This document shows, in pieces, positions 32,669 through 36,918 of a stretch of 64,000 nucleotides of DNA. The stretch comes from Patescibacteria group bacterium (GTDB taxonomy: Bacteria; Patescibacteriota; Patescibacteriia; UBA9934; GWF2-40-263): positions 300,306 to 364,305 of the forward strand of contig JBAZTR010000001.1 in NCBI GenBank assembly GCA_041661745.1, read 5' to 3'. Position numbers and translations under genes: made by a program. The notes beneath the pieces were generated by a model, which had not been told where the DNA came from, did no database searches, and saw only the letters and a program-made list of their open reading frames with translations. The first letter of the stretch is position 1; every line of letters starts with the position of its first letter.

Positions 32669-34258
32669 CTACTCGCTGCACTCGGCGTCGAGGCCGTCGC
32701 AGTCGTTGTCCACACCGTCTTCGCAGACCTCGGTCATCCCGGGGTTCACGTCGTCGTCGTGGTCGTCGCAGTCGGTGTAGTCCTCGACGTAGTCGGGCCC
32801 TTCGAGCCCGCACGAGATGATGGTGTAGAGGCCGTCGGCCCCGTAGCCATCGAGGTCGCGGTCGAAGTACCAGACGGTGCCGTCCACCGCGCCGTCCTCG
32901 TCCACCTCGCCGTCGCAGTCGTTGTCGACGGTGTCGCAGTACTCGTCCGCGTCCGGGTGGACATCCACGTCCATGTCGTCGCAGTCGGTGCCGCCCACCG
33001 CGTCGGCGTCGTAGCCGTCGCCGTCGACGTCGGTCCAGTCGCTGCCGTCGCAGTCCTGGTCCTCGCCGTCGTAGGGGGCTTCGCCGGCCCCCGGGTAGAC
33101 GATGGCCGAGGTGTCGTCGCAGTCGACGGCCGTGGAGTACCCGTCCCCGTCGTAGTCGGGGTACAGGCAGACCGGGTCGGCCGTGTCGACATGGCCGTCG
33201 CAGTCGTTGTCGATGCCGTCGTCGCAGCGCTCGGCCTCGTCTGGGTTGGCGTCGGCGTTCTCGTCGTCGCAGTCGGTGTGGTCCACCACCCGTCCCGCGA
33301 TGACCTCGCAGGAGTAGATGAAGTCGGTGCTGTCGCCGAAGCCGTCCCAGTCAGCGTCCGCGTACCAGTACACGAAGAACACGGCGTCGTCGACGAGACC
33401 GTTGCAGTCGTCGTCCGAGCTGTTGCAGCGCTCGGTGGCGCCCGGGTGGACGCTCGAGTCCGTGTCGTCGCAGTCGGTGGTGTTGTCGACGTAGCCATCC
33501 GGGGCCTCGCAGACCTGGATGGTCTCGAGACCGTTGCCGTGGCCGTCGCCATCGGCGTCGGCGTAGAACGTCACGGTGACGTCCTCGTCCACCTCGCCGT
33601 CGCAGTCGTTGTCGATGCCGTCGCAGACCTCCGGGTTGCCCGGGAAGCTGCTGGCCTCGACATCGTCGCAGTCGGTGGTGTTGTCGACGTAGCCATCCGG
33701 GGCCTCGCAGGCCTCGGTGATCTTGAGACCGTTGCCGTAGCCGTCACCGTCCGCGTCCATGTAGAACACGTCCTGGACGTCCTCGTCCACGCCGTCGTTG
33801 CAGTCGTCGTCCACGCCGTTGCACTCCTCGTGCGCGTTGGGGTGGACGGCAGGGTTGCCGTCGTCGCAATCCCCGCACTCGAGGTTGTAGTGGCGCGGGA
33901 TGTCGTCTCCGTGGTGGATGACGACGACATCGTCGGGCGTGCCGTAGCCGTCGACGTCGCCGTCGAAGCACCAGGTCTCCTCCTTCGGCTCGCCGGTGTC
34001 GATGACGATCTCGCCGGTGTCGATGATCTCGGTGTCGTCGTCGCAGACGTCGCCGGTGCCATCGCCATCCATGTCGGACTGGCCGGCGTTGGCGTTCTGG
34101 GGGCAGTTGTCCCCGTCGTTGTCGACGCCGTCGCCGTCCATGTCGACCCAGCAGCCCGCGAGGGCCATGAGGAAGAGGGTCACGAGGAACAGGGGGATCC
34201 AGCGCATGAGAACCTCCGCATTGGGGGGGGGTGGAACCACGTCAGGTTTCCGTGGCAT
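32669..34258 (-). CDS. high-GC lipoprotein with thrombospondin-type-3-like Ca-binding repeats and MopE-type Cys-rich repeats
   Basis: Probable start MRWIPLFLVTLFLMALAGC (lipobox) with GGAGG 6 nt upstream, near 34207. It contains DMDGDGVDNDGDNCPQNANAGQSDMDGDGTGDVCDDD (a TSP3-like repeat) and repeated CDDxDxxVHPGAxExCDGIDNDCDGxVDED units. GC3 is very high. Confidence 0.7.
   Translation of the reverse strand: MPRKPDVVPPPPNAEVLMRWIPLFLVTLFLMALAGCWVDMDGDGVDNDGDNCPQNANAGQSDMDGDGTGDVCDDDTEIIDTGEIVIDTGEPKEETWCFDGDVDGYGTPDDVVVIHHGDDIPRHYNLECGDCDDGNPAVHPNAHEECNGVDDDCNDGVDEDVQDVFYMDADGDGYGNGLKITEACEAPDGYVDNTTDCDDVEASSFPGNPEVCDGIDNDCDGEVDEDVTVTFYADADGDGHGNGLETIQVCEAPDGYVDNTTDCDDTDSSVHPGATERCNSSDDDCNGLVDDAVFFVYWYADADWDGFGDSTDFIYSCEVIAGRVVDHTDCDDENADANPDEAERCDDGIDNDCDGHVDTADPVCLYPDYDGDGYSTAVDCDDTSAIVYPGAGEAPYDGEDQDCDGSDWTDVDGDGYDADAVGGTDCDDMDVDVHPDADEYCDTVDNDCDGEVDEDGAVDGTVWYFDRDLDGYGADGLYTIISCGLEGPDYVEDYTDCDDHDDDVNPGMTEVCEDGVDNDCDGLDAECSE
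34222..34233. repeat. poly-G (8-9) homopolymer tract in the 5' region of the island lipoprotein gene
   Basis: attgggggggggtgg lies just upstream of the GGAGG RBS. This is a candidate slipped-strand site. Confidence 0.5.
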
Positions 34259-34467
34259 TGGGGTGAAGGATCTATATCAACCTGTTTTTAACTCTTTTAA
34301 GCTAAAAAGGATCAAAAACAGATTGAAATTTTCAACGCCATATTTCAACATTTTTTAAAGCTTTTGTCAATATCTAGTGAGGATATTTTAACAAAAACAA
34401 TAGACCTCCGATCGCGTCCCACCCAGAGGGGGTAGAACACGTCGGAGGTCTGAGGCTCCCCTGCTAG

Positions 34468-35559
34468 CTAGAGGCTGCAGAGGAGGTCGTAGCCGCCCAC
34501 TCCGTTCGAGAGGGGGTAGCAATCGGAAGTGGCGGTGGCGCCGATGGTCAGCGCGACGCCGTTGAGGGCGATGCCGGTGATGTGGACGACGGGCCCGTAT
34601 TCCACGAGCCAGCCGCCCGACCTGACGCCGTTCAGCTGTACGTTCGTGGCGCTGGCCGCGAGACCGGTGGCGAAGGTCGAGGAGGTCCCGGCCGCGACCG
34701 AATCGCAGCCAGATGCTCCGCCGAACCAGTGGGACCAGTCGCCGCCGGCCGCGTAGCACAGGGACCACGCACTCGAGGAGACGGTCGAGTCGACGGTGAC
34801 GACCAGGCCGTTGTCGACCGTGTCGTCGCAGTCGTTGTCGATGAGGTCGCCGGCGACTTCAGTCGCGCCGGGGTGAATGGTGACGTCGGTGTCGTCGCAG
34901 TCGCGGCCCGAGGCGGCACCGCAATCGACGCCGTACCCGTCGCCGTCTTCGTCTACTTCGGCGCCGGCGAAGCAGACGCCGGAGTCGCAGTAGTACGTGT
35001 AGCACGCGTCTGCCGGGCAGTCCGCGTCCGTCACGCACTCGGGCTCGACATCCGTGTCGGTGTCCGTGTCGGTATCGGTGTCGCTGTCGGAATCCGTATC
35101 GGCATCGGAATCGGAATCGGTATCGGTGTCCGAGTCCGTATCCGCGTCGGTGTCGCTGTCCGTGTCGGCGTCGGTATCGGAATCGGTGTCGCTGTCGGCA
35201 TCCGTATCCGCATCCGTGTCCGAGTCGCTGTCGGCGTCCGTGTCGGTGTCGGACTCTCCGGTATCGCCGGTGTCCCCGACGCCGGTGTCACCGGTGTCCG
35301 TATCGGTGTCGGAATCGGTATCGCTGTCGGCGTCCGAATCCGAGTCGGCGTCGGTATCCGTGTCGGCTTCGCCGGTGTCGGCCGTGTCGGTCTTGCCGGT
35401 GTCGCTGGTATCACCAGTGTCGGTGTCCTCGGTACCGGTGTCGTCGACAATCTCGACGCCGGTGTCCTGCTGACCACCACTCACCACCGACGGGGCATAG
35501 CAGCCCCAGAGGGTGAAGGAAGCGGCGAAGGCGAGGACGAGGGTCAGGGCGCGGTTCAT
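34468..35559 (-). CDS. high-GC lipoprotein with a long poly-(Asp-Thr/Ser) acidic linker and a C-terminal Cys-rich domain containing one MopE-like repeat
   Basis: Start [20 protein letters not shown] (lipobox; ATG at 35557-35559, GGAG RBS). [17 protein letters not shown] low complexity, then [23 protein letters not shown] ... [14 protein letters not shown]. Confidence 0.65.
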
Positions 35560-35754
35560 GGGAGTCTCCGGGTTGACTGGGTGCTGCCTCAGTTTTTTCC
35601 CTAAAACCAATACGGCTTGTTGGGATTGGGCAGCGTCTGAAAGGGCTTTGTTCAGGGTCTTTTAAGACCTTAAACAAGCATTAAATAATACCACAAAAAA
35701 GGCCTTTTGTCAACCGTGATAGGGGGCCTTTTGGTGGGGGCTTTTTGATAAATT

Positions 35755-35805
35755 TAGGCGGCGTTCGGGCATTAAAGGGCTTTAAAGGGCGTTAAGGCAA
35801 GGAAA
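35755..35805. repeat. 'gggcgttaagg' short-tandem-repeat element, copy inside island 2
   Basis: taggcggcgttcgggcattaaagggctttaaagggcgttaaggcaaggaaatattt. Related copies at 11215-11262 (reverse complement), 38536-38640 and 39035-39110. Confidence 0.55.
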
Positions 35806-35895
35806 TATTTAAAAAAAATACGACCCCCGGACCACTCGCTTCGCCTTGGGAGGCAAAGAAGTGGTACAGGGGCCGAAGCCCGCAGGATGAAGTCC

Positions 35896-36666
35896 TTACG
35901 GGAGGATGTCGAGGACCTGGGCCTCGCACCCGTCGACGACGCCGGTGGTCTTGTGGTAGATGCTGATGACGGGGTCGCTCGACGACCCGTCCTCGCACTC
36001 GACCACGACCTGGTGCGTGCCGACCAACTGGTCGTCCGCCTCGTCCTCCGTGGTGCTCTCGCACCCGTAGCGGACGAAGTAGGGCTCGGACTCGAACTGG
36101 TACGTCACGTTGTACCGGAGGTCCGAGGAGGCCGACAGGTAGGCCTGGAACTCGACGGAGATGCCGACCTCGTACTCCACCGACCAGATCTCGTCCCAGC
36201 CGGTGTAGTTGTCGTCGACCTCCATCGAGAGGGTGAGGATGTCGGCCGCCTCGCTGCCGGGGACGGTCCAGTCGACGTTGATCGTGCAGAGCACCTCTTC
36301 GTCGCAGCCCTCGTCGGTGTCGCCGTCGCAGTCGTCGTCGATGTCGTTGCAGACCTCCTCGGCGTCGGGGTTGACCTCGGCCTTGGTGTCGTCGCAGTCG
36401 GTGTCGTCCGCGACGTAGCCGTCGGGGACGGTGGTGGCCTCGACCTTGAGGTTGGGGTCGCCGAAGCCGTCGCCGTCGAGGTCGCGGTACCAGGTGGTGT
36501 CCGCGCCGGTGTCGGTGTCGGCGTCGGTGTCCGAGTCGGAGTCGGTGTCGGCGTCCGTGTCGGTGTCGCAGTCGGTGTCCTCGGTGTCGGGGCCGTCCAC
36601 CTTGGAGGTGGGGTAGGCGCAGGCGTTGACGAGGGCGAGGAACGCGAGGGAGAACAGGTAGCGCAT
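35896..36666 (-). CDS. high-GC lipoprotein with a DT-repeat linker, one MopE-type repeat and a C-terminal beta-rich domain
   Basis: Start MRYLFSLAFLALVNAC (lipobox; ATG at 36664-36666, GGAGA RBS), then [19 protein letters not shown], then YRDLDGDGFGDPN...CDDTKAEVNPDAEEVCNDIDDDCDGDTDEG. Confidence 0.65.
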   Translation of the reverse strand: MRYLFSLAFLALVNACAYPTSKVDGPDTEDTDCDTDTDADTDSDSDTDADTDTGADTTWYRDLDGDGFGDPNLKVEATTVPDGYVADDTDCDDTKAEVNPDAEEVCNDIDDDCDGDTDEGCDEEVLCTINVDWTVPGSEAADILTLSMEVDDNYTGWDEIWSVEYEVGISVEFQAYLSASSDLRYNVTYQFESEPYFVRYGCESTTEDEADDQLVGTHQVVVECEDGSSSDPVISIYHKTTGVVDGCEAQVLDILP

Positions 36667-36701
36667 GGGAATCTCCACGAAAGCGGCCCGAATCGGGCCA
36701 T

Positions 36702-36709
36702 GGGGGGGG
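36702..36709. repeat. poly-G8 tract ~40 nt upstream of the lipoprotein start, preceded by a ggcccgaatcgggcc hairpin
   Basis: ccatggggggggtgtcagg. It is the same arrangement as at the neighbouring island gene. Confidence 0.5.
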
Positions 36710-36918
36710 TGTCAGGGAACGATGAGACTGGGGCTTTCCCCTGGTCTCGATGAACGGTTCACCGAGACGCTGTAGGGTTGAACCACAGTGCTCGGGGCGT
36801 ACATTCAACTAAGTTGAAGATACATCCTGAAAACTATGATTGATAGATTAAGTTGAATAATCTGGGGACGGCAGGCGTATCGCTACGCGTGCCGCCCCAG
36901 ACAGAGTTGTTGTCCCTC

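Follow-up and report, generated by a model that had tools for sequence, protein, structure and literature searches.

Poly-C runs ahead of two lipoprotein genes in a GC-rich island of a Patescibacteria bacterium: phase-variation switch or lengthened leader element?

Introduction

Can a homopolymer that lies ahead of a surface-protein gene be taken for a phase-variation switch? The question is raised by a 64,000-nt stretch of DNA from a Patescibacteria group bacterium (contig JBAZTR010000001.1 of assembly GCA_041661745.1, positions 300,306 to 364,305; hereafter the window), in which two poly-G tracts on the + strand, G9 and G8, read as C9 and C8 in the sense of the two - strand lipoprotein genes that they precede, g1 and g3. 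The initial annotation of this DNA had proposed both tracts as candidates for slipped-strand ON/OFF switching. We report here that the tracts are genuine, long enough to slip and placed in the 5′ leaders of the two genes, that runs at the equivalent position in relatives vary in length, and that a classical ON/OFF mechanism is not supported.

Contingency loci are recognized by a run long enough to slip (about 7–8 nt or more for G/C), by linkage to genes for surface or environmental interaction, by length polymorphism within a population or among closely related isolates, and by placement where length alters expression, either early in the coding sequence or amid or beside the elements of the promoter. 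C9 and C8 have the required length, and the lipobox signal peptides, MopE-type repeats and neighboring surface-glycan locus provide the linkage, but neither tract has the placement. We evaluated position, conservation, statistics and predicted folding of both tracts.

Results

Both tracts lie outside supported reading frames and promoter spacers

Scanning the whole window for G/C runs of at least 7 nt returned solely G9 and G8 (Table 1), with no C run of that length on the + strand, and A/T runs of 7–8 nt numbered 79. Each stands on the sense strand, no more than 35 nt from the start codon of a lipoprotein gene. The initial annotation had given them as ~34224-34232 and 36702-36709, the former being one base off, and had called the first hard to read because it was counted as both 8 and 9; this was a miscount, the tract being unambiguously 9 nt long in the window as in all other assemblies. 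The two genes had also been described as adjacent and the tracts as lying in AT-rich spacers, neither of which holds: a further gene, g2, lies between g1 and g3, and the 60 nt centered on each tract are 62% and 67% G+C, AT-richness in these spacers being confined to the distal, promoter portion.

In gene sense, the g1 leader reads ...ccacggaaaccugacgugguucca-C9-aaugc-GGAGG-uucuc-AUG and the g3 leader reads ...cccugaca-C8-au-GGCCCGauuCGGGCC-gcuuucgu-GGAGA-uuccc-AUG. The first tract thus lies just 5′ of the GGAGG Shine-Dalgarno (SD) sequence, and the second upstream of the g3 start beside a GC hairpin, both as originally placed. An upstream in-frame ATG at 34258 had also been noted, which we rejected as the start of g1 since this codon has no SD and would put a D/E-bearing extension, atypical of a signal peptide, before a canonical lipoprotein signal; on SD and lipobox grounds, ATG 34207 is taken as the start of g1. 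An ATG also stands directly 3′ of each tract (C9-a-AUG, 34219-34221; C8-AUG, 36699-36701; both on the - strand). With respect to the lipoprotein start, these two codons share phase +2, and they lack an SD of their own; the arrangement is probably a coincidence.

When the g1 leader was aligned with that of L103, the closest relative found, a conserved block emerged (cTTGACAAAA.C.TTAAAAAATG.TGAAATA) that contains a putative g1 promoter some 115 nt 5′ of C9, with the end of its -10 element 110 nt upstream of the tract. Promoters of the TTGACA-N14-TGnTAnnnT type also precede g2, the fourth island gene g4, all four island genes of a Candidatus Uhrbacteria genome (L019) and the relevant gene of a third lineage (L112), both described below. 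For g3, a 24-nt block (CAATCATAGTTTTCAGGATGTATC) that is identical in L103, some 115 nt 5′ of C8, is the probable promoter or operator, though it matches sigma-70 poorly. No sigma-70-like -35/-10 pair overlapping either tract was found by a lenient scan (at least 7 of 12 matches, A2 and T6 required, spacer of 15–20 nt), and a promoter overlapping a tract was rejected because none appeared even at these thresholds. The conserved promoter block and the architecture of L112 would place the g1 tract 3′ of the transcription start and 5′ of the start codon.

Both leaders were then folded in silico with runs from C3 to C13, a procedure that is blind to effects mediated by protein, small RNA (sRNA) or RNA polymerase. 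Across this range, the two leaders kept minimum free energies of -45.1 and -59.8 kcal/mol, the stretch from SD to AUG kept its mean unpaired probability (0.30 and 0.49), and the tract was predicted to be 82–98% unpaired. An RNA structural switch involving the tract was rejected because the tract is unpaired and predicted folding is insensitive to its length. Rfam searches at gathering and E-value thresholds identified no family in the leaders, returning only chance mir-598 matches inside g1. Because neither tract is placed to act through reading frame or -35/-10 spacing and predicted folding is indifferent to their length, the classical ON/OFF switching first proposed for them is not supported; that tract length has no detected effect on frame or promoter spacing is one half of what the initial annotation had named as counting against it.

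Short C-runs recur beside the Shine-Dalgarno sequence in related islands

A metagenome scan with an alignment of the Wzy protein encoded next to g1 returned 75 loci with 42–85% identity, dozens of which carry a block of 60–70% G+C directly upstream of Wzy in a background of 40–50% G+C. In L103 (Wzy 85% identical), the g1-type leader has C5 followed by aa and GGAGG, while the g3-type leader has C5, then a GGCCaauGGCC hairpin and GGAGA; this hairpin (GGCC-AAU-GGCC) occupies the same place as that of the window g3 leader, with a different sequence. The Uhrbacteria metagenome-assembled genome L019 (Wzy 54% identical) has four GC-rich secreted-protein genes before Wzy in the same layout as the window, with C4 in the g1-type leader and C5 abutting GGAG in the g3-type leader. 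In L112 (Wzy 57%), the Wzy-adjacent lipoprotein gene carries C8, 4 nt 5′ of GGAGG and about 140 nt downstream of TTGACG-N14-TGtTATAAT, a run that was lengthened independently at a comparable leader site; no g3-type leader was found in this locus. A telomere-like C-rich repeat (aaCCCCCaaCCCCtaaaCCCCaaCCCCtg) was also seen at 3718-3750 of L112, within the spacer that precedes this gene's promoter.

Protein comparison by BLASTP against L019 showed that g3 shares only the MopE motif and that g4 has no similarity to its positional counterpart, so that "positional equivalent" is the strongest claim that can be made for these L019 leaders. A genome-collection scan with g3 returned mostly Myxococcota-like MopE proteins matched in the N-terminal half only; these served as controls, and the scan led to L019. 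The island proteins are hypervariable, and the C-run beside the SD appears to be an old, recurrent leader feature whose length, 4 to 9 nt at the equivalent position, drifts between lineages as expected of slippage-prone sequence.

Other C7–C10 runs of related islands lie just 3′ of stop codons or in terminator stems, indicating that C-runs are general to GC-rich non-coding flanks and not to leaders alone. Among them is a C10 and G6 pair that forms a terminator-like stem just 3′ of the stop codon of a Wzy-adjacent island gene (L102, 9560-9680; L111, 5260-5380) and is identical in these two metagenomes.

Leader C-runs exceed expectation although the window-wide count does not

The initial annotation had held that two such tracts are unlikely by chance. 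For the bare count this did not stand, as the window contains 3 G8 words against 2.6 ± 2.1 in dinucleotide-preserving shuffles. Comparison with relatives supported it: 917 kb of related-lineage DNA, 306 kb of it GC-rich, held 4 distinct G/C runs of at least 8 nt, about ten-fold fewer than composition predicts, and since such runs are strongly depleted in the lineage, two within 2.5 kb are unusual.

Placement supported it as well. From 100 non-redundant secreted genes of island type, each preceded by an SD, we took the last 50 nt of the leader and compared the C-runs with those of 500 shuffles. Runs of at least 4 nt were found 38 times (expected 23.4 ± 3.7), runs of at least 5 nt 17 times (7.7 ± 2.6) and runs of at least 8 nt 3 times (0.24), and 0 of the 500 shuffles reached the observed value in each class. 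G-runs of at least 5 nt numbered 4 in the same set. The leader C-runs concentrate 11–25 nt 5′ of the ATG, and the 20 nt 5′ of the SD in island genes contain 33–42% C and about 20% G. Controls from Myxococcota-like homologues showed no excess over composition (15 versus 12.8 expected), and host-type gene controls likewise lacked the enrichment, their C-runs never rising above C5.

Tract length is the same in four assemblies

Three further assemblies cover the tracts, namely ENA ERZ27249449 (L002, 18.5 kb), Logan SRR18595301 (L001) and Logan SRR6484324 (L159 and L160). Together with the window these make four assemblies of the same strain from different assemblers and at least two sequencing runs, and the contigs of the three others are 100% identical to the window at every overlapping base. 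C8 has the same length in L001, L002 and L159, as does C9 in L002 and L160, and the Logan contigs end inside MopE and D-T repeats, none of them at a tract. Identical lengths in four consensus assemblies argue against large or shifting length subpopulations, though not against minor ones.

Exact-protein look-ups for other strains returned solely 100% identical contigs, and with g3 a singleton, the collections searched contain no other strain. Near-identical contig pairs from different samples have matching runs (C10 in both L102 and L111, C7 in both L157 and L128), with divergence too low to be informative.

The island and its surroundings

The four - strand genes form an island of 60–74% G+C at 32.6-38.5 kb in a genome of about 44% G+C; a separate AT-rich promoter region precedes each of them, and a GC-rich hairpin follows each stop codon (Table 1). 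g1 is directly upstream of a Wzy_C gene, which forms a surface-glycan locus with GT4 glycosyltransferases and a GHL15/FG-GAP protein, all downstream of the island. Both g1 and g3 qualify as PF11617 MopE-related lipoproteins, with an N-terminal lipoprotein signal and scores above the gathering cut-off of 27 (184 bits over the 7 repeats of g1, 32.6 bits for g3). The product of g3, named "MopE-related protein [Patescibacteria group bacterium]" by NCBI, has an acidic D/T-rich linker, the MopE repeat and, at its C-terminus, a domain for which no relative was detectable; among 5.8 billion proteins this product is a singleton, and no full-length relative of it was found.

Table 1 Features of the island and of the two leaders in window coordinates
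Feature	Position	Strand	Description
g1	32669..34207	-	512-aa lipoprotein (MRWIPLFLVTLFLMALAGC), lipobox LAGC, 7 PF11617 MopE-type repeats, TSP3-like N-terminus
g2	34468-35559	-	363 aa, long D-T/D-S repeats; between g1 and g3
g3	35896..36666	-	256-aa lipoprotein (MRYLFSLAFLALVNAC), lipobox NAC, one MopE repeat
g4	36919-38298	-	459 aa, signal peptide
Poly-C9 (g1 5′ leader)	34223..34231	-	Ends 5 nt 5′ of the SD, 15 nt 5′ of ATG
Poly-C8 (g3 5′ leader)	36702..36709	-	35 nt 5′ of ATG 36666
SD GGAGG of g1	34213..34217	-	5 nt 5′ of ATG 34207; read from sequence
SD GGAGA of g3	36672..36676	-	5 nt 5′ of ATG 36666
6-bp GC hairpin GGCCCG-AUU-CGGGCC	36685..36699	-	Begins 2 nt 3′ of C8
Long AU-rich leader hairpin	34274..34329	-	Between g1 promoter and C9; flanks kept in L103
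Putative g1 promoter	34342..34370	-	TTGACA (34370-34365), 17 nt, TGAAAT (34347-34342), TGt before -10; block kept in L103
24-nt block, probable g3 promoter or operator	36819..36842	-	Identical in L103

The g4 product gave no match against Pfam, NCBIfam or PDB sequences. It has a central charged region, probably helical, and a C-terminal part that is rich in Gly and closes with ...GGLVFAY, an end that resembles an outer-membrane beta-barrel signature and would be odd for a presumed single-membrane bacterium of the candidate phyla radiation (CPR). Blocks of 60–74% G+C with MopE-repeat lipoproteins were seen at 32600-38500, 15200-18160 and 42600-43900 of the window and in the loci L019, L042 and L084-L158; their persistently high G+C could reflect repeated import from GC-rich donors or biased gene conversion among repeats. 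Over the island, the ENA gene calls (L002, 4050-9970, corresponding to window 32582-38502, + strand) are wrong-strand shadow open reading frames (ORFs) of 569, 340, 288 and 537 aa, which is why exact-product look-ups of g1 fail, and public annotation of such GC-rich islands is unreliable.

Other repeats were observed in the window. Repeats phased at ~10 bp (GGGCTTTAAAGGGC/GGCCTTAAGG) occur in the g2 region (35760-35797), upstream of the g2 promoter, and in the g4 region (38575-38640), downstream of the predicted g4 promoter, where the array ends in a C6 run in gene sense (38629-38634); these repeats may represent bent DNA or an array of binding sites. A palindromic element of roughly 50 nt (CCCTCTCCCCATCCCTCCCCCGTATGAGGCCATACGAGGGAGGGAGAA) is present in three copies (about 39754-39805, 43975-44026 and 55436-55487), each just 3′ of a - strand gene, with a 14-bp C/G-rich stem and, in the - sense, a G-rich tail (GGGGAGAGGG); it resembles a repetitive extragenic palindromic (REP) element or an unusual terminator. 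Finally, in the region of 60684-60989 and 60995-61401, a 141-nt direct repeat in two copies with 89% identity adjoins the transfer-messenger RNA (tmRNA) gene, whose tag peptide (ANANIFSQVKNTFAKAFAVPSFVSVVA) is unusually long.

Discussion

The explanation we prefer, and to which we give about an even chance, is that both tracts are slippage-lengthened leader C-runs with no or minor effect. C8 and C9 would be lengthened versions of a short C-run (C4–C6) in the 5′ untranslated leaders of the two lipoprotein mRNAs, a run that appears to recur just 5′ of the SD in GC-rich MopE-lipoprotein island genes beside a Wzy-like gene in an Uhrbacteria-like Patescibacteria lineage. The ancestral run would have belonged to an unpaired, G-poor segment that separates leader hairpins from the ribosome-binding site, and replication slippage may have stretched it to 8–9 nt in the window genome. 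A change of ±1 would not be expected to switch g1 or g3 on or off, because the tract is outside the coding frame and the -35/-10 spacer, and tract length would at most slightly tune mRNA level or translation.

Several points weigh against this explanation. Both leaders are lengthened in one genome that has no other G/C run of at least 7 nt in 64 kb, which looks more locus-specific than neutral drift predicts, and the independent lengthening in L112, at a matching place in the leader, could point to selection or to a hotspot. The poor sigma-70 match of the g3 promoter means that a non-canonical promoter may exist near C8. The assemblies give consensus lengths, to which minority tract lengths are invisible. 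In Moraxella catarrhalis uspA1, moreover, a G-run ~29 bp before the ORF changes mRNA level about 20-fold (PMC7302503), and an effect of that type would be expected to escape in-silico folding.

Such an effect leads to the alternative that the tracts are 5′-untranslated-region (5′-UTR) contingency loci, in which slipped-strand mispairing would generate subpopulations differing in C-run length, with a graded, uspA1-like effect on mRNA level or translation, or with a G-rich RNA or protein partner (compare Helicobacter pylori tlpB/RepG). We consider this somewhat unlikely. It draws on the joint lengthening, on the L112 run and on the uspA1 precedent just cited, on the range of 4 to 9 nt among lineages, on the strong depletion of long G/C runs elsewhere in the lineage, and on the fact that the sole such runs in 64 kb precede surface-lipoprotein genes of a hypervariable island, both in sense orientation; lengths of 8–9 also fall among those that screens for phase variation treat as prone to slippage (PMC7864442, PMC7302503). 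It is opposed by the identical modal lengths in four assemblies with no contig end at a tract, by the finding of no length-sensitive element in frame, promoter spacer or predicted folding, and by the C4–C5 runs of most relatives, which are too short for high-rate switching. What stands of the original proposal is that the tracts are genuine, slip-long, upstream of surface-lipoprotein genes and variable in length between genomes, and what is not supported is the classical ON/OFF mechanism.

The tracts could instead be a by-product of composition without a role, the proximal leaders sharing the high G+C of the genes, which may have come from a GC-rich (Myxococcota-like) donor, and chance runs of 8–9 being tolerated in non-coding DNA. 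The window count of G8 words at shuffle expectation, the high local G+C and the C7–C10 runs after stop codons or in terminator stems of related islands all agree with this, as do the Myxococcota-like homologues, which have C6–C8 beside GGAG at the frequency predicted by composition (for example C7-GGAG in L031). Yet the leader C-runs of the Patescibacteria islands exceed shuffles of the same leaders, their position beside the SD is kept in L103 and L019, and real relatives have about ten-fold fewer runs of at least 8 nt than composition predicts. We hold this account to be unlikely.

Less probable again is a broader version of tunable control, in which the SD-adjacent C-run would be a lineage-wide, length-tunable leader element that gives Patescibacteria stochastic, graded control of hypervariable surface lipoproteins. 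It would act through the 5′ UTR and not through reading frame or promoter spacing, runs of at least 8 nt having arisen independently in at least two lineages (the window genome and L112). We regard this as a speculative proposal with a small chance of being right.

A translational frame switch in g1, starting at ATG 34258 with C9 coding for PPPP so that a slip of ±1 would truncate the protein, is very improbable. With C9, ATG 34258 is indeed in frame and opens a 529-aa ORF, and C8 and C10 would give a 25-codon ORF and a 171-codon out-of-frame ORF, respectively; against this, the strong GGAGG and canonical signal peptide belong to ATG 34207, the D and E of the 17-residue extension are atypical of a signal n-region, and the internal start would still yield protein after a frameshift. 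A corresponding switch in g3 is opposed by the ATG abutting C8 being out of frame. An error of sequencing or assembly, such as poly-G artefacts in reads or the collapse of homopolymers, is conceivable in principle because homopolymer lengths are error-prone, but is effectively refuted by internal tracts with unique flanks and identical lengths in four assemblies.

Among characterized systems, promoter-spacer homopolymers, of which Bordetella fim poly-C is an example, resemble the window tracts in being G/C homopolymers upstream of outer-surface genes, where ~8 nt or more flags candidates. Others are the poly-C of Neisseria fetA (PMC5320596) and the poly-G of Treponema pallidum tprE/G/J, tp0126 and tprL (PMC7864442). 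The tracts of these systems lie in or beside the promoter and alter -35/-10 or activator spacing, whereas those of the window overlap no promoter-like pair. Neisseria pilC poly-G, which acts by in-frame phase variation (PMC5320596), belongs to the same homopolymer length class, but the window tracts are upstream of SD-supported starts, so that no frame is affected. The tracts thus have neither promoter-spacer nor in-frame placement, and resemble the upstream or 5′-UTR class in position only.

Within that class, the uspA1 tract is described in PMC7302503, which cites Lafontaine et al. 2001, as a non-coding homopolymer of 6–12 nt with strain-variable length ahead of a surface-protein gene, at a position comparable to that of C8 (35 nt) and C9 (15 nt). 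Length heterogeneity and the ~20-fold mRNA effect were measured in uspA1, while the modal lengths of the window tracts are identical across assemblies. The organisms differ too, a host-adapted pathogen in one case and an uncultured Patescibacteria bacterium in the other. For H. pylori tlpB, Pernitzsch and colleagues are said to have described in 2014 a 5′-UTR G-repeat of strain-variable length that is targeted by the sRNA RepG. Both cases have a homopolymer in an mRNA leader whose length could tune post-transcriptional control, but the mRNA base is C in the window and G in tlpB, and no partner RNA was identified for the window tracts. No paper linking CPR bacteria with homopolymer phase variation was found in the literature searched, nor did the sample accessions lead to any publication there.

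If tract length does not modulate expression, which we judge more likely, these loci are a caution against reading every G/C homopolymer ahead of a surface gene as a switch: where it stands with respect to promoter, SD and start codon needs checking, and the window tracts fall outside both classical placements. Were the SD-adjacent run a tunable element, it would be the first contingency-type locus described in CPR. Should length modulate expression, the tracts would be the first sign of pathogen-style stochastic surface variation in ultra-small, host-dependent Patescibacteria, and would help to show which surface proteins are important for attachment to the host.

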